Positions 8,125-55,573 of a DNA stretch of 64,000 bases are shown in pieces. The DNA is from Candidatus Nanoarchaeia archaeon (GTDB lineage Archaea > Nanobdellota > Nanobdellia > Jingweiarchaeales > Jingweiarchaeaceae). Made by a program: the position numbers and the translations under genes. Positions within the stretch are counted from its first letter, which is position 1. Each line of letters begins with the position of its first letter. The stretch lies in NCBI GenBank assembly GCA_038874075.1, contig JAVZDD010000002.1:4605-68604 (forward strand), written 5' to 3'. The notes beneath the pieces are model-generated. The model ran no database searches. It was not told the origin of the DNA and worked only from the letters and a program-made list of their open reading frames with translations.

Positions 8125-8526
8125 ATGAAGTCTCAAGTGGCCATTGAATACATGATATTAATTTCTTTAATTCTACTACTCTTAGTACCTATCTGGATCT
8201 ATCTTATGCTTTCAAGGATACAGCTTCAAGATGATCTTTCAATTTCATACGCCAAAGATGCGGTCAATCGAATAAAAGATGCAGCCGATTTGGTTTACAT
8301 CCAAGGAAGTCCGGCTCGAGTGAAAGTGAATATTTATATTCCAGAAAATGTGCACAGCATAAATTTTACTGATAGGACGATCATCATCAAATTAAGGACA
8401 AGTGCTGGTCTCGTTGACATTCATGCAGAAACATTAGCTAACATTACAGGACAGCTGCCTGTTCAAAGCGGATACTACGAAGTAATTGTTAAATCCGAAG
8501 TGGGTTATGTGAATGTCACGATCTAA
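8125..8526 (+). CDS. Prepilin-like protein (class III signal peptide-like N-terminus)
   Basis: MKS-QVAIEY then about 20 hydrophobic residues; Q at +1 and E at +5 relative to a putative K-S cleavage site; many N-x-S/T sequons. Confidence 0.5.
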   Translation: MKSQVAIEYMILISLILLLLVPIWIYLMLSRIQLQDDLSISYAKDAVNRIKDAADLVYIQGSPARVKVNIYIPENVHSINFTDRTIIIKLRTSAGLVDIHAETLANITGQLPVQSGYYEVIVKSEVGYVNVTI

Positions 8527-8905
8527 GTCTCAAATAATCGCGGAAACGCTTTTTGTATATGCAATCTTATTTGCATTTTCAATGATCATGATAATCTACA
8601 TATTCGATCAAAATACACAAATGTTGGAAGAAAGAAAAAGGGCAGAAGCAAATAGAATTTCTTCAGATATTGTGGATGCAATAAATACAGCTGTGATTGA
8701 GGGTGATGGCTTCTCAATTACCTTCACAACACCACCAGACATATTGGGGACGAACTACACGCTAAACATCGATGATGGGGCATTATTGGTTGAATGGAGC
8801 AATCATACGTTAAGTAAAACAATTCTCACCAAGAATGTGTATGGTACATTAAAAAAAGGCACAAATACTGTGAGAAATGAAAATGGGCAGATTTTTATTG
8901 AATAA
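8513..8905 (+). CDS. Prepilin-like protein (class III signal peptide-like N-terminus)
   Basis: MSRSKS-QIIAETLFVYAILFAF; overlaps upstream gene by 14 nt. Confidence 0.5.
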   Translation: MSRSKSQIIAETLFVYAILFAFSMIMIIYIFDQNTQMLEERKRAEANRISSDIVDAINTAVIEGDGFSITFTTPPDILGTNYTLNIDDGALLVEWSNHTLSKTILTKNVYGTLKKGTNTVRNENGQIFIE

Positions 8906-9410
8906 AAAAGCACAAGTATTATCTGCTGATTTAGTGGTAAGCATTTTCATATTCACAATTATCATCTCTTTGTTTTTTATTTTTTGGAGAAATGTATATA
9001 ACAACCTGACAATGCAGGAAAAGTTTTTAGAATTACAATATTCGGCAATAAGAATCTCAAATATGCTCGTGAAGACAACCGGTTATCCAAGCAATTGGAA
9101 TTCAACCAATGTTGTTCAGATTGGGCTTGCATCAGAGGCAAATGTACTCTCAATTGAAAAGTTAAGAGTTTTCTTGGATATTAATTACGCTGAAATCAAG
9201 AGAATAATGAAAATAAGTGAGGATTTTAGGGTAAGAGTGAAATACAGAAATGGTAGTACGATTTTGGATAATCTTGGCTTGCCATTAGAAAAGGGATTGG
9301 AACCATCTCCAAGCGCCAAGATAATCGTTCCCATAGAAAGACCATGTCTATTAAAATTAGAAAATGTAACTGTAATTTGTATCTTTGAGTTTAAGTTGTG
9401 GTCAACATGA
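8877..9410 (+). CDS. Prepilin-like protein (class III signal peptide-like N-terminus)
   Basis: MKMGRFLLNKKA-QVLSADLVVSIFIFTII; overlaps upstream gene by 29 nt. Confidence 0.45.
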   Translation: MKMGRFLLNKKAQVLSADLVVSIFIFTIIISLFFIFWRNVYNNLTMQEKFLELQYSAIRISNMLVKTTGYPSNWNSTNVVQIGLASEANVLSIEKLRVFLDINYAEIKRIMKISEDFRVRVKYRNGSTILDNLGLPLEKGLEPSPSAKIIVPIERPCLLKLENVTVICIFEFKLWST

Positions 9411-12175
9411 AAAAAGGTTTTGTAATTCCACTTGATATGACAATCGCGATTATCATATTACTATTTACCTCAACCATATTCACATTCTTTCAGTATGGGC
9501 TTGAGACACCGGGAATAATCTATGAGCTTTCATATCAAAGGGCTGAAGATACGCTCACGATCTTGCAAAAAACAAAGATTGCTTATGTAACAGATGATCC
9601 CGTCGTAACACAATACATCAATCAAGGGATGATCACAGAAGAAGACATGAATAAAACGATATTGGACTTGATTGGTACATTTTGGTCCGAGGGAAAGGTT
9701 GATTTGGCCGTCAATTTATCAAAGAGTATTTTTGATTCACTATTACCACCAGAAGTTGGTTACGAAATTGTAATAGGGAACGACACTATTTATAGTCGAC
9801 CAGGTGTATTGGGTAGTATTTTCAGAGTGAGGACAGTTGTCTCTGGTTTCAAAACCGGAGAAGCACCACTAGGTTGCATCGCAAGCGCCTACATAGAAAA
9901 AATTAAAGGAAAACGAACCGCATCTTACTATTACTTTGGTGGTTTTACTGGTCAGGGAAATTTAACCTTTTATATTTATGATATTCCAAGCGATGCAATC
10001 ATAGAAAGCATCTATCTAGAACTCAGCACCGTGGCAAATGCCACTTTATACATAAATGGAAATTTTTGTCAATCATTAAATAAGAAATATCCAAATTACA
10101 CCGTTGAAAATTGGACAATATTTGATCAAAATTGCATCAATAACATCAGCAAGGGAGTGGCAAACCTATTCACCATTAACTTCTCTTCCCCAGTTACGAG
10201 TGCATACATTGGTGGCGGTTACATAAAGATCACGTATGATACTGCACAGATGAATGTTCCTCTGGGCAATGTGATGCAATACAACTTCACAGGAATTTCT
10301 GGTGTTATCAACCTGTATGATTCATTTTATATTCCAGGAAATTTAACATCGATGGAGATGCATTTGGAATTTTTAAGTAACTATTCAACTTTTTTCAATA
10401 TTGGTAACAAAACAATTTTTGAGAATAATGGAAGTAATACTACACAAATCATTGATTTCAATGATTCGTATCTATCACAAATTTTGAATTACAGTGAGAT
10501 AAGCTTGGAAACAATTCCATTGCGCTTCGGTATGAAGGCATTTAACATCACGATTCAACAGAATGCTGATGTCATTTTGATCACAGATTTATCTGGAAGT
10601 ATGGATTGGAGATTAGATAGCGAAAATACAGGAATAGCCAGAAATTGTACTGATCCTTTATTGAATAGTTCAAATACAAAAAGAATAAGCTTAGCAAAAT
10701 GTTTGGACAAGGAATTCGTTGATATCATATTAAATACTTCTGGAAATAGGGTTGGATTGGTTGGATTTTATAGTGACAATTCACCACCATACAAAGGAAG
10801 AACAATCATTCACGATTTATCCGATAATAAGACAAGCTTATACAATGCAATCGACAGCTATTTTATCCAGGGTGGAACATGTATCTGCTGTGGTATAAAC
10901 AGGGCTTATAACATTTTGAGTGCGCAGAGCAATGCATCAAGGAAAAAATTCATCGTTGTAATGTCAGATGGAATACCAACACACCAATGTGGCTCAAGTG
11001 GTACAGATGAGTGTCAAGGGATTAGAGATGGTTCTCCGGCAAATGAGGGTTTGTGGTTAGGTTGGGGGGCCGGATGTTATGGTGGAGGAGACGATTGTAA
11101 TACGACCGATTGCTTGTGTGCGATGCAAAATGCGAATTGGTCTTCATGCAGGTCATACAATAATTTGAATGCGACCGTATATTCAATTGGATTCGGACCT
11201 GTTGCAAGCTGTTGGAGTGCAAATTGGACATTGAGATCAATTGCTGATTGTGGACATGGCAGTTACTATGCAAGCAGCGATGCAGATGAACTCAAACAAA
11301 TTTACAGAAGTATCGCAGAATCGATCTTGAATGCATCTTACACCACACAATTGATAGAGGTAACAAATGTAACAAACACAATATTATATCCATCTTCTTA
11401 CATTAAATTTAATTACACACCCATTGTACCGCAATATGGTTACTCTGAAATATCTATAAAAGGTGATACAAAACCTTTCAGCGGTTGCAATGGAAGTTTT
11501 TTTGTTCCAGGTCAATTACAAATTGATGACGTTCAAGTTACATCTTACTCATTTGATTATTGGACGGATAAAATATTTGTGAATAATAGCATTACAAATG
11601 GTAGTTTGATCAATGTCTTTAATCTTTCAAAGTTTGGTAGTGATTATAAAAAACTTGGTGATCCATATGCGATCAAATTTCCAGCTTACTTCATTGGATC
11701 AAACGAGACTAATTACATTAACATTCTGCTTGCCCTGAGTCCGACAAATCAAAGCACAAATTGTTCAGCTGGTGATAGGGTCATTTACACTGGTAGAATT
11801 AGAACACCAATTATCTACTCAAATGTCCTACCATTTTGCAAAGGAAGCAATGTGAGCGTTTGCTTTGATAAAGATCACGATGGCTATGCAGATGGTTGTT
11901 CATACATTGCAATCGGTAAAAATCTTCCGAATTTCAATGCCACACCAAAAACCGTGGAGGATTTGAATCCAAATGAAAACGCAGTAGATCAAGTTTTCCT
12001 ACAACTTTTAGATGCATTAAACTTTGTTACAATACCAGCGAACACTGGTAGATCAGGAAATTTCACGAATCCGATTGACATAGAACTCGTTTCGGAACTG
12101 AATTTTGATACTGTTGATACAGCAAACGTACCATCTCTTTGGCAACCCGTATCAATTGAGGTGAGAATTTCATGA
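9407..12175 (+). CDS. Large prepilin-like surface protein with von Willebrand factor A domain
   Basis: MKKG-FVIPLD N-terminus plus hydrophobic helix; MIDAS motif DLSGSMD, GGT and VVMSDG motifs (vWA), Cys-rich insert, very high N-x-S/T density. Track start 9398 is GTG; ATG 9407 overlaps upstream stop (ATGA). Confidence 0.65.
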   Translation: MKKGFVIPLDMTIAIIILLFTSTIFTFFQYGLETPGIIYELSYQRAEDTLTILQKTKIAYVTDDPVVTQYINQGMITEEDMNKTILDLIGTFWSEGKVDLAVNLSKSIFDSLLPPEVGYEIVIGNDTIYSRPGVLGSIFRVRTVVSGFKTGEAPLGCIASAYIEKIKGKRTASYYYFGGFTGQGNLTFYIYDIPSDAIIESIYLELSTVANATLYINGNFCQSLNKKYPNYTVENWTIFDQNCINNISKGVANLFTINFSSPVTSAYIGGGYIKITYDTAQMNVPLGNVMQYNFTGISGVINLYDSFYIPGNLTSMEMHLEFLSNYSTFFNIGNKTIFENNGSNTTQIIDFNDSYLSQILNYSEISLETIPLRFGMKAFNITIQQNADVILITDLSGSMDWRLDSENTGIARNCTDPLLNSSNTKRISLAKCLDKEFVDIILNTSGNRVGLVGFYSDNSPPYKGRTIIHDLSDNKTSLYNAIDSYFIQGGTCICCGINRAYNILSAQSNASRKKFIVVMSDGIPTHQCGSSGTDECQGIRDGSPANEGLWLGWGAGCYGGGDDCNTTDCLCAMQNANWSSCRSYNNLNATVYSIGFGPVASCWSANWTLRSIADCGHGSYYASSDADELKQIYRSIAESILNASYTTQLIEVTNVTNTILYPSSYIKFNYTPIVPQYGYSEISIKGDTKPFSGCNGSFFVPGQLQIDDVQVTSYSFDYWTDKIFVNNSITNGSLINVFNLSKFGSDYKKLGDPYAIKFPAYFIGSNETNYINILLALSPTNQSTNCSAGDRVIYTGRIRTPIIYSNVLPFCKGSNVSVCFDKDHDGYADGCSYIAIGKNLPNFNATPKTVEDLNPNENAVDQVFLQLLDALNFVTIPANTGRSGNFTNPIDIELVSELNFDTVDTANVPSLWQPVSIEVRIS

Positions 12176-13407
12176 AAAGAGGCATAAGTTTCAGCATCAT
12201 CACATTCTTGTTTCTGATACCAATACTCACGTTCATAATCACATACTCAGAATCAATGCAATCAATCAGGAGGGAAAGCATAAAAAAGATTCTATCTGAT
12301 CAAAATATCTTCTTTTCTAAAACTTTGCTTAATGACCTAGAGAAAATGATATGGATAACGGGGAAACGAGCGATAATTTCAGCAATACAAAGAGTGATTA
12401 AGTATGGTACACCACTGAACGATTCCATTTCCGTTATAAAAGAGCTGATGCAAAACGGTACGATTTTTGGTGTAAATGAAACCCTAATGCAAAACAACAC
12501 AATCGGTTACTGGATAAACTTAATCCAATTGGAACAAAATGTATCTGCTTTCAATTTTTCAATCGCTTATTCAAATTTAGAGGTTGATTGGGAATCATTT
12601 AATTGCATTTTTAATGTTTCATTCTCAATTAATGTTTCTGACATTTCAAATACAACCAGGTCCACGAGGATTGGAAATATCTCAATTCTTGTTTCAATCG
12701 AAAAGATGGAAGATCCGATTTATCCACTATACACGAATGGATTGTTTAGAAAAAGTATAAAAATTTGTAATTCAACACTTCCCGAGGTTCGTAGTTTGGC
12801 TTTTGGTACAATCGCGAGTAAAAATGTCACAGGTATATCAGTCATTGGCCTCTCATCAAATTTAACTTACATTCAATCAATTCAAAACAAATCAGATAAA
12901 ATACTCGTCACAGATAACCTGACGATCATAGGTTCTGCCTTAATAAATGCATTTAAAGGAGTCGTTGCGGATCATAGCGATTTACCAGCAGGTATTACAG
13001 TACCATATATCATAAACACAACAAATGCAACAACATCCATACCAGACGCACGTTTAATATATTTGGACGAAATCACGAAGAAAGTTTGGGACATTGAAAA
13101 ATTTGAAGATACAATAAATACTGGTTGTTACCATATTTCATTGAATGGTTCAAACATTTTTGGTAGGTTAGAGGGAAAATTGAATTCTACGGGGAATAAA
13201 TCAGGCATTGAAAGTTTCGTTGATGTTAGAAAATTAATTTCAATGGATATACCAGTGAAAGAAAACCAAACACTTATTGATTATCTCTATTTTAGTAACA
13301 ACTCTCATCCAGGATGTAAAGTAAGGGGCATCAATGAAACGTGGTTTAGAATTGATCCCTGGAATGCTGAAAGATACGGAGTAGGAGAGATTTTAGATTG
13401 TAGTTAG
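12172..13407 (+). CDS. Membrane-anchored extracellular protein, last gene of the prepilin-like operon
   Basis: MKRGISFSIITFLFLIPILTFII N-terminus; SD GAGGTGAG upstream; start overlaps upstream stop; many sequons. Confidence 0.5.
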   Translation: MKRGISFSIITFLFLIPILTFIITYSESMQSIRRESIKKILSDQNIFFSKTLLNDLEKMIWITGKRAIISAIQRVIKYGTPLNDSISVIKELMQNGTIFGVNETLMQNNTIGYWINLIQLEQNVSAFNFSIAYSNLEVDWESFNCIFNVSFSINVSDISNTTRSTRIGNISILVSIEKMEDPIYPLYTNGLFRKSIKICNSTLPEVRSLAFGTIASKNVTGISVIGLSSNLTYIQSIQNKSDKILVTDNLTIIGSALINAFKGVVADHSDLPAGITVPYIINTTNATTSIPDARLIYLDEITKKVWDIEKFEDTINTGCYHISLNGSNIFGRLEGKLNSTGNKSGIESFVDVRKLISMDIPVKENQTLIDYLYFSNNSHPGCKVRGINETWFRIDPWNAERYGVGEILDCS

Positions 13408-25050: not shown

Positions 25051-25173
25051 GCGGGGGTAGCGAAGCTAGGTCCAACGCGCAGGACTTAAGTTTAATTACT
25101 TAAGTGATGAGGTCACAATGATATGAAATCCTGTGGCTTAGTGCCCGCGTGGGTTCAAATCCCACCCCCCGCA
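25051..25173 (+). tRNA. tRNA-Leu (anticodon TAA) with about 37-nt intron
   Basis: Acceptor GCGGGGG/CCCCCGC, discriminator A, long variable arm, T-arm GTGGG-TTCAAAT-CCCAC; anticodon stem CAGGA...TCCTG interrupted by about 37 nt (25091-25127 if at canonical 37/38 site). Confidence 0.65.
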
Positions 25174-28204: not shown

Positions 28205-28235
28205 AAGTAAATAATAATTTATAAAAATTTAAATC

Positions 28236-28324
28236 TGCCTGGGGTGGGATTTGAACCCACGATTGCAGCGTATCTTAGCAAAGCTCATGAGCGCTGCGTT
28301 CTAGCCAGACTAAACTACCCAGGC
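28236..28324 (-). tRNA. tRNA-Met/Ile2 (anticodon CAT) with about 14-nt intron
   Basis: Reverse complement: acceptor GCCTGGG/CCCAGGC, anticodon stem CAGCG...CGCTG with loop CTCATG + 14-nt insert, T-arm GTGGG-TTCAAAT-CCCAC, discriminator A. Track ORF 28244..28459(+) is spurious. Confidence 0.65.
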
Positions 28325-28325
28325 A

Positions 28326-52546: not shown

Positions 52547-52549
52547 AAA

Positions 52550-52633
52550 TGCAGGGGCTGGGATTCGAACCCAGGAAGGCACTAAGCCACTAGGTCCTAA
52601 GCCTAGCTCTTTAGACCGCTCAGACACCCCTGC
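52550..52633 (-). tRNA. tRNA-Leu (anticodon TAG)
   Basis: Reverse complement: acceptor GCAGGGG/CCCCTGC, anticodon arm CTAGG-CTTAGGA-CCTAG, long variable arm, T-arm CTGGG-TTCGAAT-CCCAG, discriminator A. Confidence 0.8.
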
Positions 52634-52696
52634 AATTTAACAAATAATTGTTTTGTTTAATAAATTTTCCCCAAATCTGCTGCCTAATATATAAGT

Positions 52697-53539
52697 ATGG
52701 GGTTAAGTGGAAGATGTAAGTGTGGAAGCTCAAACTTTCAATACGACTTAAAAAGAGCAGAAAAATTTTGCACCAATTGTGGTTTAATAATAGAAGATAA
52801 TTTATTTTCAGAATTTGAGATAAAGAATAATGGGAGTATGAAAAGTAGAGAGATCAAGCCAAGATTTCCGAATGTTTTGAGAACACCGAGAGAAAGAGTA
52901 ATGAAAAACGCAAGAGATGAGCTCTGGTATCTTTGTGATGTTCTCCAAATAAAAAGTCAACAAATTAAAAATGAAATTTTGAAGCTTTATATGAAGCTCT
53001 ATGAAATTGATTTTACTGAACGAGTGAGCAGGGAATGTATAATTGGTGCATTGATTTATCTTATTTGTTGCAGGGAGAAGCACAATTATCTCACACTATT
53101 TGACATCAGCAAGTTTACAAATCGCTCGCCAGAAGAAATCTGGGAAATGGTCAATATGATATGTGATGAGCTTGAAATTAAATTTATTCCTCCTGATCCC
53201 GAGAATGGAATAATAAAATTTGGGATAGAACTTTTTATGGAACCGTATGAAATTACATTAGCAATGCAAATTATGGAAGAAGCTAGATTAAATGGAATAA
53301 TAGAAGAGTATGCAGATGTGCTTGATGTGATAACAAGCCTTTATTTATCATCTCTCATATGCGCTAAGATAAAGAATAAGAACGTCATAAAAATTGATGA
53401 CATCCTGAAACAATTCTGTTGGATTGATAAAAATGACCTTATAAAAAATATTACAGTCTGGAAAAGGTATATTAGTCCAGAAAAAATTATGAAGTGGAAA
53501 TTAATCAAAGAAATAAAAAATTATAGATTTAAAAACTGA
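52697..53539 (+). CDS. Transcription initiation factor IIB (TFB)-family protein
   Basis: TFIIB-type zinc ribbon CKCGSSNFQYDLKRAEKFCTNCGLIIEDN followed by about 250 aa consistent in length with two cyclin folds. Confidence 0.55.
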   Translation: MGLSGRCKCGSSNFQYDLKRAEKFCTNCGLIIEDNLFSEFEIKNNGSMKSREIKPRFPNVLRTPRERVMKNARDELWYLCDVLQIKSQQIKNEILKLYMKLYEIDFTERVSRECIIGALIYLICCREKHNYLTLFDISKFTNRSPEEIWEMVNMICDELEIKFIPPDPENGIIKFGIELFMEPYEITLAMQIMEEARLNGIIEEYADVLDVITSLYLSSLICAKIKNKNVIKIDDILKQFCWIDKNDLIKNITVWKRYISPEKIMKWKLIKEIKNYRFKN

Positions 53540-54264
53540 AATTGCTTTGCATTTTTCCACATATAAATATTGTTAAACAAACAATAAACTTCCTTCACAC
53601 TCCTTTTTATTTCATTTATTTTTTTTAATAGGGATTCCAAATCTTTTCTTGTGTACTTGTAGCTGTACATTCGCTTTCCAGGTGGGGAACCATGTAAGCG
53701 AAAGTAAGCGATCTTCTTCTTACTGAAAAAGGTTGGTTGTCTAGCAAAGGGGTCGCATACGTCTATCAAATCAAATACCTTGCATACCTCCTCGATGCCT
53801 TTATCGCTCCAACCTCTCAATTCAATCGCAATTGAGATTTCATCTCTCTTAATTGAAGAGAAAAATTTTTTCATATTTTTTTTATTCTCCTCATTTTCTT
53901 TGAAAGAAGACGGTAATTGTATCAAACAAATTTTCGATTTCAATGTCTTACAAACTTGTAATGTTTCATTCCAGAAACTCAGAACTTCACTTGTTGGCCT
54001 CAAAAATCCAACTTTGTCTGACAATCGTTTTATTTCATTTTCATTAAGACCACTTCTTTTCCAAGTAGGACTATTTGTTGGATGCGAGATTCCTTGAAAG
54101 CATTTAATTGTAAATTCAAAATCAGTCGGAACAATATTTCTCCATTTCTCAACTGTTTTTATCAGTGGTAACTTGTAGAATGTTGATTGTACCTCAACAA
54201 GTTTAAATTGTTTTGCATATTTCTCAATTGCTTTTGGAAATCCACAACAACCAATTTTTATCAT
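53521..54264 (-). CDS. DUF72-family protein
   Basis: N-terminal MIKIGCCGFPK resembling the DUF72 IGTSGWSY start. Confidence 0.5.
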   Translation of the reverse strand: MIKIGCCGFPKAIEKYAKQFKLVEVQSTFYKLPLIKTVEKWRNIVPTDFEFTIKCFQGISHPTNSPTWKRSGLNENEIKRLSDKVGFLRPTSEVLSFWNETLQVCKTLKSKICLIQLPSSFKENEENKKNMKKFFSSIKRDEISIAIELRGWSDKGIEEVCKVFDLIDVCDPFARQPTFFSKKKIAYFRLHGSPPGKRMYSYKYTRKDLESLLKKINEIKRSVKEVYCLFNNIYMWKNAKQFQFLNL

Positions 54265-54310: not shown

Positions 54311-55126
54311 TCATTCATCAATATTCCTCTCGATCCAGAGTAACCTAGCAACTGCCATTGTAGCATAGCCAAATATCGCAATTAAGAATGCATCTTCGAA
54401 TCTGCCAATACCATAAAGGAGATACCTGCCGACTAAGAAAAGGTATGAAAGAAAAACTAATGCTGGTAACGGAATTATGTTTATCCGTTTCCAAACACAA
54501 GGTTTTTGTTCATTCATTAGCATATGCAAATCTCTCCTACTCTTCAGTTCTCCAAGTTCACTTGCAATTTTATAATCTTTACAAAGTTGAAATATTACAC
54601 CAGGAATTCCCTCTGATTTCGTTGCAATCAAATTTATTACTTGAGCTCTTGTTTCGTTGCCTAGTAATCGCATCGCCATTTGTTTACTTTCATGCCATTT
54701 CAATGGTACCAATTCTATTTTCTCCCTAAAATTTAATCTCACATCTTTCTCAGAAGTTGCGATGAGAATTACGATTGATAAAATTTTATTTAAGATTTTT
54801 CTTGTTTCAGTTGTAATTTCATCAAAATCATCGATCAGAAAGATTAATTTTTCCCTCCTCTTCCTCAATTCACTTAATATTTTTTCCATTTGCTCTCTCC
54901 TACTTCTCTTGTGCTCAATTCTCAAAAAATTTGAAATGTCACTCAGTAGCTCCCTCGGAGTAATTGGTGTTTGGATAAGTAATGTTCGATGAAAATATTT
55001 TTTTCTTATTTCTTTTAGTAATCTCGTCTTTCCGATACCTTTAATCCCGTAGATTAAGCAATGGTGCTCGTGTCTAATGTATCTCTCAATTTTCTCCATC
55101 TCAAAATTTCTTCCAATCAGTTCCAT
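54311..55126 (-). CDS. P-loop NTPase (AAA-like) with C-terminal transmembrane helices
   Basis: Walker A GIKGIGKT, Walker B LIFLIDDFDE, two C-terminal hydrophobic helices. Confidence 0.5.
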   Translation of the reverse strand: MELIGRNFEMEKIERYIRHEHHCLIYGIKGIGKTRLLKEIRKKYFHRTLLIQTPITPRELLSDISNFLRIEHKRSRREQMEKILSELRKRREKLIFLIDDFDEITTETRKILNKILSIVILIATSEKDVRLNFREKIELVPLKWHESKQMAMRLLGNETRAQVINLIATKSEGIPGVIFQLCKDYKIASELGELKSRRDLHMLMNEQKPCVWKRINIIPLPALVFLSYLFLVGRYLLYGIGRFEDAFLIAIFGYATMAVARLLWIERNIDE

Positions 55127-55132
55127 TTTCCA

Positions 55133-55573
55133 TCAAATCAAAAAATAAATCATCCAAGATGAAATTGCAATCAAATAATCAAGGGAACTCCCAGTTATCA
55201 CAGGACCGTCAAATATCACGAATCTGTAATTTAATGGCCAAAGTAACTTTGTTCCAGTATATGTGAGCATATCCAGGAAGACATGTGAAAACAGCGCTAT
55301 GATAACATAAATCACATAGTCAGGAAAGAGAATGAAGAATAGCAACGAACTTATTCCGAGGAACAGAAAGGAATGGGTAATGCTCCTATGCCCAAAATGT
55401 TCCTCTAACTCGTAACTTATTGGTCTAAAAATGAATCCAATTTCGGAATTATTTATATCGATGTCTGGAAAAATACTAAAGAAAATCAATATAATTGTAC
55501 TCGCCAAAGAAGGACTAAGTTTGAGAAATTTTGTTAAAAGCATTGCGATTCCAATGTGTGTAATGCTTATCAT
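55133..55573 (-). CDS. Membrane-bound metal-dependent hydrolase (YdjM/DUF457-like)
   Basis: 146 aa polytopic; His-rich motifs HIGIAML, GHRSITHS, SHVFLDM. Confidence 0.45.
   Translation of the reverse strand: MISITHIGIAMLLTKFLKLSPSLASTIILIFFSIFPDIDINNSEIGFIFRPISYELEEHFGHRSITHSFLFLGISSLLFFILFPDYVIYVIIALFSHVFLDMLTYTGTKLLWPLNYRFVIFDGPVITGSSLDYLIAISSWMIYFLI

Follow-up and report, generated by a model that had tools for sequence, protein, structure and literature searches.

What does an archaeal initiation factor do when it keeps the modules at both of its ends but has lost the part between them? This question is raised by a short transcription factor B (TFB)-like gene of Candidatus Jingweiarchaeum tengchongense, which lies in a 64,000-nucleotide stretch of contig JAVZDD010000002.1 (assembly GCA_038874075.1, positions 4,605 to 68,604 of the forward strand); this whole stretch is called the window below, and positions within it are counted from its first letter. 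In canonical TFB, the B-reader and B-linker between the zinc ribbon and the cyclin-like core extend into the cleft of the polymerase; they open the promoter and select the start site, and are considered essential. The gene product described here (the short TFB) lacks both; we think that it is probably an accessory TFB paralog of reduced architecture, one that modulates initiation and is not the housekeeping factor.

J. tengchongense is a DPANN archaeon (Nanoarchaeota in GTDB, class Nanoarchaeia, order DTBS01, proposed as Jingweiarchaeales), known from metagenome-assembled genomes (MAGs) of ~0.9–1.1 Mb and 34% GC from Tengchong hot springs; MAGs of the species, such as GCA_025920685.1, GCA_025920645.1, and GCA_025920765.1, have a reported completeness of 100% on a set of 48 single-copy genes and of 90–95% by CheckM2 (PMC10134863). 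The content of the window is archaeal, with RNA polymerase (RNAP) subunit genes including a split rpoB, archaeal ribosomal proteins and 33–35% GC, and exact matches of its proteins point to J. tengchongense. The short TFB gene is an intact open reading frame (ORF), present and identical in every inspected MAG contig of the species, and the DNA of the locus is 100% identical among all the loci of the species that we fetched. Its annotation is inconsistent: the NCBI product name is “hypothetical protein” in every case, and the start calls conflict on identical DNA, with the identical 280-aa protein called full length in other MAGs of the species (P0142; OH319_02235) and a 233-aa protein starting at M48 called in OH354_04590. 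The gene deserves a proper name.

Architecture of the Short TFB

The membership of this protein in the TFB/TFIIB superfamily (PF08271 plus PF00382 repeats; arCOG01981) is secure. The original prediction, made by a model from the sequence alone, had recognized a TFIIB zinc ribbon at the N-terminus, and the motif is indeed as described: C7-K-C9-G-S ... C25-T-N-C28-G-L-I-I-E-D-N, with C7, C9, C25, and C28 as the four ligands. The Pfam Zn_Ribbon_TF model (PF08271) reaches its gathering score (29.4 bits against 29, E 5.9e-7), the ribbon domain scores 30.9 bits in our own canonical TFB hidden Markov model (HMM), and the AlphaFold model (built on a 15-sequence alignment; mean pLDDT 80.4) has a three-stranded ribbon with strands at residues 14–17, 22–25, and 31–33 (pLDDT 73–78).

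The same prediction had called the remainder a divergent core with little of the cyclin-repeat signature, and here only the first half of the claim holds. The core is divergent in that Pfam PF00382 (TFIIB repeat) scores repeat 1 at 19.6 bits, below its gathering score of 23.6, the single-domain Pfam scan does not report repeat 2 at all, and the NCBIfam model NF001658 (“transcription initiation factor IIB”) gives 61.8 bits (E 5.6e-17) against a curated cut-off of 384. A profile search and a structure prediction had been proposed as checks, and both recover the repeats: whole-length models detect them, NF001658 at the E value just given, our own HMM of 36 canonical TFBs at 121.5 bits and hhalign, with the short family set against 24 canonical TFBs, at a probability of 100% (E 2.4e-57) over 262 columns that cover both repeats, while the AlphaFold model has two five-helix cyclin repeats (helices within residues 64–159 and 168–258) at pLDDT about 85–95. 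The top Foldseek matches of this model in the PDB are TFIIB, Brf1, Brf2, and P. woesei TFBc (for 1d3u_B, TM 0.66 and rmsd 4.2 Å over 195 columns). The “little” cyclin signature is therefore valid for single-domain Pfam scoring only, because the whole-length profiles and the model show both repeats.

The main peculiarity of the short TFB is not its divergent core but a deletion: ~40 residues are gone between the ribbon and the core, and with them the whole of the B-reader and the B-linker (canonical domain limits as given in PMC13502027). On our canonical HMM the ribbon aligns to positions 13–44 and the core to positions 112–278, leaving ~22 residues for the 67 positions between. We also surveyed the spacing between the final cysteine of the ribbon and the “ERN” with which the core begins in 130 retrieved proteins, about 90 of them canonical TFBs; it is 39 residues in the short TFB versus 73–90 in the canonical proteins, which carry the motifs GPEWRAF, HDKGLST, and RLRKWQ, all three of them absent from the short TFB. 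By hhalign, ~40 canonical columns are deleted, and nothing in the short TFB corresponds to the E-W-R, G, T, and R that are nearly invariant in the canonical reader and linker. What remains is a tether, of which AlphaFold predicts residues 38–57 to be disordered.

The consequences of such a loss are known from TFBs that have been studied experimentally: the ribbon docks on the RNAP dock domain and the core binds TBP-DNA, while the reader and linker open the DNA and position the template strand, and deletions and substitutions in the reader and linker abolish promoter opening and transcription in the TFBs tested (PMC13502027, PMC3025549).

The second change concerns the helix-turn-helix (HTH) of repeat 2. 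Its fold is kept, with predicted helices at residues 233–239 and 245–258 in the right place, but the motif by which canonical TFB contacts the TFIIB-recognition element (BRE), TxVTIRNRYKE, is not: hhalign places the canonical T-x-V-T-x-R-x-R-Y-K opposite D-x-N-D-x-I-x-N-I-T. Since these nearly invariant residues, among them the basic and polar ones that read the BRE, are replaced, canonical reading of the BRE by the short TFB seems unlikely. Four features that define canonical TFB are thus missing: the protein does not reach the curated score, has neither B-reader nor B-linker, and lacks the residues that contact the BRE. The clear canonical signature by which the original prediction would have recognized ordinary housekeeping is not there: 61.8 bits stand against the cut-off of 384, and the reader and linker are missing.

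The Short-Tether Family and Its Ribbon-Less Members

An exhaustive HMMER search over 1.84 billion cluster representatives returned 129 matches to the short TFB at E ≤ 1e-3, 11 at E ≤ 1e-10 and one, the protein itself, at E ≤ 1e-30. About a dozen of the matches combine a tether of 38–44 residues with a (Y/F)PNxLxTxxER-type lead-in to the core; they include P0004, P0005, P0007, P0008, P0023 (from an Aenigmarchaeota MAG), P0029, P0096, P0014, P0066, and P0075, and are mutually 30–40% identical. The family as we use it (alignment A1) is an ad hoc grouping, not a curated one, of proteins of about 200–290 aa that have the lead-in motif and either a spacing of 38–44 residues or no ribbon. The short TFB fits it, with a spacing of 39 and the motif FPNVLRTPRER, and scores 302 bits on the family HMM, whose alignment includes the short TFB itself. 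Judged from these matches, the family is sparse and very diverse, and its members also differ in the HTH: the RNR-type HTH is kept in P0004 and P0075 and not in the short TFB, P0002, or P0003. Scans of a genome and a metagenome collection with a narrow family alignment, whose pattern FPNVLRTPRE matches the short TFB exactly, gave no relatives; they also missed the window's own locus and the metagenome contig of P0002, stretches that seem to be masked in these collections or missing from them.

The zinc ribbon is missing from the two closest relatives, P0002 (54% identity, from a JGI metagenome) and P0003 (40% identity). Both start a few residues before the FPNVL motif, with in-frame stops directly upstream, and their upstream ORFs are without CxxC motifs. 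The M48 start that some NCBI annotations assign to the short TFB lies close to the point where these two proteins begin. A second TATA-like stretch, TAATATATAAG, is found at 52686–52696, directly before the first ATG of the gene; speculatively, a transcript from this stretch could give the ribbon-less M48 form only, mirroring the ribbon-less relatives.

Another member of the family, P0006, stands among further genes built of TFB modules: in L005 6971–10864 (also in L006 and L007), its neighbors are a TFB-type zinc ribbon that forms a protein by itself (86 aa) and a VIT-VWA-TFIIB fusion of 753 aa, and a phage-type integrase lies ~7 kb away. The region may be a mobile one.

Sole TFB or Paralog

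The original prediction had left two options: a fast-evolving genome with this highly divergent protein as its sole TFB, or a regulatory paralog. The scores of same-class TFBs, the ribbon-less relatives and a related genome that has such a gene alongside a canonical TFB all fall on the side of the paralog, and the sole divergent TFB is unlikely. Canonical TFBs of Nanoarchaeia and Woesearchaeota align with NF001658 from end to end in a single stretch, at 305, 400, and 417 bits; because proteins of the same class keep 305–417 bits, lineage-wide drift does not explain the 62 bits of the short TFB. On the Pfam TFIIB model the same-class proteins reach 127–162 bits versus 19.6. P0002 and P0003, for their part, are without a ribbon and cannot recruit RNAP; they therefore cannot be sole TFBs.

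The related genome is PWPM01, a MAG for which the supplement of the Jingweiarchaeum paper gives arCOG and KEGG annotations (PMC10134863). It carries a genuine TFB, PWPM01000023.1_4, which is 55% identical over 294 aa to a reference TFB, scores 344.9 bits on K03124 (threshold 162.2) and adjoins TRM1 and L35Ae (PMC10134863). It also carries a weak TFB-like protein, PWPM01000038.1_4 (arCOG01981, E 2.5e-15), whose best KEGG ortholog is Brf1 (K15196) at 86.4 bits, below the threshold of 201.2, with a K06921 ATPase gene (_1) and a YdjM/DUF457 gene (_2) upstream (PMC10134863), as beside the short TFB gene. We infer a short-tether architecture for this protein from the synteny, the weak TFB score and the best match to Brf1, all read from annotation tables only. 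Another MAG of the same study likewise has a K03124-positive TFB adjoining TRM1 (PMC10134863). In PWPM01 there is, in addition, a third and very weak TFB-like gene, PWPM01000020.1_5 (K15196, 25.6 bits), beside pelota (PMC10134863).

The contrary reading is that the short TFB is the sole, highly derived housekeeping TFB of a lineage that has dispensed with the B-reader and B-linker altogether. It can draw on the fact that the gene is present and identical in all inspected MAG contigs of the species and on a series of empty searches. A six-frame search of the 64-kb window with our canonical TFB HMM hit only the short TFB ORF; the 10 kb beyond the left edge of the window hold no canonical TFB (ABC transporters, a radical SAM gene and a Na/H exchanger are found there); no Jingweiarchaeum TFB was among the 120 matches listed of 1,901 in a word-index search with the DPANN TFB P0011, the named matches among those 120 being all of Woesearchaeota/Nanoarchaeia type; and none was found in the clusters of ten compositionally similar canonical representatives. 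Yet the window is only about 6% of a genome of roughly 1 Mb, the relatives of the same class keep canonical TFBs, K03124-positive TFBs adjoin TRM1 in related MAGs of the same study, PWPM01 has both the syntenic homolog and a canonical TFB, and the orthologs at 54 and 40% identity are without the ribbon. A housekeeping factor, moreover, would be expected order-wide, and only one cluster was found at E ≤ 1e-30. We therefore regard a sole TFB as highly improbable; if it were true, it would overturn the view of the reader and linker as indispensable.

A canonical TFB elsewhere in the Jingweiarchaeum genome is very probable, judging from the relatives, because of the ribbon-less orthologs, the coexistence and the shared neighborhood in PWPM01, and the TFB of the other MAG. 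The short TFB is then neither of the two things that together would have made it unremarkable: it has no clear canonical signature and it is probably not the only TFB of its genome.

Neighboring Genes and a Shared Promoter Element

The features of the gene and its surroundings are collected in Table 1.

Table 1. Positions in the window of the short TFB gene, its predicted protein segments, its promoter and its neighbors.
Feature	Position	Strand	Basis or remark
tRNA-Leu(UAG), immediately upstream of short TFB gene	52549..52634	-	No att-like repeat
A/T-rich TATA-like box TTTAATAAATTTT, 41 to 29 nt upstream of short TFB ATG	52656..52668	+	Direct reading; TATA-like hexamer histogram
Promoter-proximal element AAATCTGCTGCCTAA, 10–24 nt upstream of short TFB ATG	52673..52687	+	Exact second copy elsewhere
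Short TFB-like gene	52697..53539	+	280 aa plus stop; identical NCBI proteins at 280 aa / 233 aa
TFB-type zinc ribbon, residues 7–33 (CxC...CxxC, three beta strands)	52715..52795	+	Pfam, own HMM, AlphaFold
24-residue linker, residues 34–57, largely predicted disordered	52796..52867	+	Replaces ~60-residue B-reader plus B-linker
Internal ATG (M48)	52838..52840	+	Start in some NCBI annotations; predicted ribbon-less isoform
First cyclin-like repeat, residues about 58–159	52868..53173	+	NCBIfam, own HMM, AlphaFold, Foldseek, hhalign
Second cyclin-like repeat, residues 168–258, including helix-turn-helix position	53198..53470	+	AlphaFold, hhalign
Extra C-terminal helix, residues 261–279	53477..53533	+	AlphaFold; common to closest relative P0002
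DUF72 gene, convergent, overlaps short TFB 3' end by 19 nt (53521–53539)	53521..54264	-	Outside conserved neighborhood
AAA/STAND-type ATPase gene, C-terminal hydrophobic membrane anchor, co-oriented with YdjM	54311..55126	-	Conserved neighbor
YdjM/DUF457 membrane hydrolase-family gene	55133..55573	-	Conserved neighbor in L010 and PWPM01
Second copy of element AAATCTGCGGCCTAA, 9–23 nt upstream of YdjM start codon	55582..55596	-	Exact match

Beyond the convergent DUF72 gene (a high fraction of overlapping genes has been reported for these MAGs; PMC10134863) lie the two genes that recur beside short TFBs. In L010, the locus of P0004, the order is ATPase, then YdjM, then short TFB; the ATPases of the two loci are 30% identical (E 2e-27) and the YdjM proteins 39% (E 9e-30), levels comparable to the 31–35% identity between the TFBs themselves. 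Each of the ATPase homologs ends in a hydrophobic anchor, and the YdjM family is one of integral membrane proteins.

The promoter of the short TFB gene and that of the YdjM-ATPase operon have a 15-mer in common, AAATCTGC(T/G)GCCTAA, which occurs exactly twice in the 64 kb, with no third copy even when two mismatches are allowed. Each copy sits after an A/T-rich TATA-like box, and the core of the element is GC-rich against a background of 24% GC. As a control, we compared pairs of upstream regions, and only 4 of the 2,628 pairs reached 14/15 matches. The element may be an operator common to both promoters, and it is suggestive of co-regulation of the short TFB gene with the YdjM-ATPase operon.

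These neighbors allow a more elaborate reading, to which we give little credence: that the short TFB, the anchored ATPase and YdjM form a signal-responsive module, an archaeal counterpart of an alternative sigma factor with its membrane anti-sigma and protease, in which the ATPase and YdjM would retain the TFB at the membrane or set it free. Its further parts are just as doubtful, namely that the freed TFB would throttle or reprogram initiation in competition with canonical TFB and autoregulate through AAATCTGCNGCCTAA at its own gene and at the partner operon, and, a conjecture on which we would not lean either, that the ribbon-less relatives, and possibly the M48 isoform, would be pure blockers of TBP-promoter complexes.

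In each of three distant Nanoarchaeia genomes, the gene after YdjM/DUF457 codes for a small AAA/STAND-type ATPase of ~270 aa with a conserved C-terminal membrane anchor (window 54311–55126, minus strand; L010 2339–3163; L014 1321–2127). The pair is an uncharacterized two-gene membrane module. A defense-system neighborhood was considered and set aside, PADLOC having given weak generic AAA matches only.

A further reading is that the gene came from a mobile element or a virus, where its TFB-like product redirected or shut down host transcription, and has since become chromosomal. The gene does abut a tRNA gene. Other members of the family do lie amid accessory or defense-type genes (type I restriction-modification, Mrr, Shedu SduA_C, PIN, integrase and further TFB-module genes), and viral TFB-like families exist: PHROG 20431 matches at 37.5 bits, and a Saccharolobus rod-shaped virus encodes a putative TFB of 270 aa. 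The similarity to these viral families is, however, no higher than that to cellular TFB, and the neighbors in the window are ordinary cellular genes. An integrated element at the tRNA-Leu was looked for specifically: there is no att-like repeat of the tRNA, and therefore no sign of such an element, nor is there an integrase or a compositional anomaly around the gene. We give a mobile origin very little weight.

Three further observations concern other parts of the window. A 123-nt sequence at 25051–25173 (plus strand) is a tRNA by Rfam, presumably intron-containing, that was missed by ARAGORN; the “tRNA-???” with a 4-base anticodon that ARAGORN reports at 28235–28325 (minus strand) is a bona fide tRNA by Rfam, probably also with an intron; and at 8125–13407 (plus strand) a run of genes, whose products have hydrophobic N-termini resembling class III signal peptides, precedes a gene for a protein of 922 aa, an arrangement reminiscent of archaeal type IV filament or pilin-like clusters.

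Proposed Function

If the short TFB is an accessory paralog, as we think, it could work as follows. The predicted ribbon module would dock on RNAP, and a flexible tether of ~24 residues would join it directly to the two cyclin repeats, the module for TBP-DNA, so that the protein would link the TBP-promoter complex to RNAP or, short of that, occupy either one. In such complexes the DNA would be opened poorly or not at all, and the short TFB would compete with canonical TFB as a brake or a poising factor. It may do so on a small regulon, marked by the shared element, that includes its own gene and the neighboring operon. The ribbon-less relatives would fit a role in occupying TBP-promoter complexes.

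Several points weigh against this proposal. The empty searches for a canonical TFB in and around the window and among the retrieved proteins are one, and the reading of the PWPM01 homolog from annotation tables is another. The shared element is known from a single genome, in two copies. P0002, P0003, P0007, P0008, P0014, and P0023 lack the YdjM-ATPase linkage, and their neighbors are often of accessory type (restriction-modification, Mrr, Shedu SduA_C, PIN), and a scan for YdjM turned up a Woesearchaeota MAG locus with YdjM and the ATPase but without a TFB-like gene; since that locus has the YdjM-ATPase pair only, the three-gene linkage is not universal. Finally, P. furiosus TFB2, with its divergent reader and linker, still supports transcription (PMC13502027), which leaves room for a positive role of the short TFB as well.

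Such a positive role is the main rival to a brake. The short TFB would then be a sigma-like initiation factor whose ribbon recruits RNAP to specific promoters, for example those with AAATCTGCNGCCTAA downstream of the TATA box, a reading that we hold to be unlikely but not negligible; it would be coupled to the idea, no more probable, that opening is supplied by TFE, the high temperature of the habitat (53–63 °C) and the AT-rich genome, with no need for a B-linker. Several points speak for it: the ribbon is well conserved, to the point of reaching the Pfam gathering score; the altered HTH could mean altered promoter specificity; the element is shared by two promoters; the host is a thermophile with 34% GC; and P. 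furiosus TFB2 still works, and is helped by TFE-alpha or by pre-melted DNA (PMC13502027). What turns us from it is that the reader and linker are here deleted, not merely divergent, and that deletions and substitutions there abolish opening and transcription in the TFBs tested (PMC13502027, PMC3025549), that the closest relatives have no ribbon and cannot recruit RNAP, and that the core of the element is GC-rich precisely where melting must start, a poor fit for a factor without an opening module.

We thus continue to prefer a competitive, modulating role. If this is true, the short TFB would be a repressor derived from a basal factor, analogous to the TFS4 inhibitor derived from TFS.

Comparison With Known Systems

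TFB/TFIIB is the universal initiation factor of archaea and eukaryotes, and its reader and linker are considered essential for opening and for start-site selection. A family that keeps both end modules without the catalytic middle, and of which some members have given up the ribbon as well, is a natural dissection of TFB function; it is found in DPANN archaea, whose reduced genomes hold few regulators. In the open-access literature we came upon no account of a DPANN TFB family without the reader and linker, and so far as that literature shows, the short TFB is a previously undescribed architectural variant within the TFB/TFIIB superfamily.

Canonical archaeal TFB (arCOG01981 / COG1405; NF001658; P. 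furiosus TFB1; P. woesei TFBc, PDB 1AIS and 1D3U) likewise has an N-terminal ribbon followed by two cyclin repeats. The short TFB differs in being ~40 residues shorter from ribbon to core, without the helix, loop and strand of the B-reader and the strand and helix of the B-linker; in the loss of E-W-R, HDxGLxT, and RLRKWQ; in the replacement of the BRE residues; and in having an extra C-terminal helix.

A shorter spacing between ribbon and core is also found in Brf1/Brf2 and viral TFIIB-like proteins (46–63 residues in the Brf-like matches), and the closest relative, P0002, is named “TFIIIB Brf1 subunit / TFIIB” by JGI, a generic COG name. The short TFB has no Brf-specific C-terminal extension, however: it ends ~20 residues past the second cyclin repeat, at 280 aa versus about 570–725 aa for the Brf-like matches, and it is found in the context of an archaeon with a single RNAP. 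We rejected identity with Brf1 on account of the lacking extension and of a K15196 score below threshold (86.4 vs. 201.2, scored on the PWPM01 homolog).

Two reduced TFB paralogs have been described before. P. furiosus TFB2 is likewise a paralog without the conserved reader/linker sequence, and it opens promoters poorly, a defect that is partly rescued by TFE-alpha or by pre-melted templates (PMC13502027); as TFB2 is described there, its reader and linker are divergent, whereas in the short TFB they are deleted and the HTH is altered too. Sulfolobus TFB3, a truncated TFB and a DNA-damage-responsive activator, is likewise an accessory regulator that is unable to replace canonical TFB (PMC7289017, PMC6101594). 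A truncation of the TFB3 type can be dismissed for the short TFB, which has the full two-repeat core. The two are in fact complementary: TFB3 consists of a ribbon and a coiled coil, with no core or HTH (PMC6101594), while the short TFB has a ribbon and a full core, and its closest relatives the core only. The family of the short TFB would stand beside P. furiosus TFB2 and Sulfolobus TFB3 as a third kind of reduced TFB paralog.

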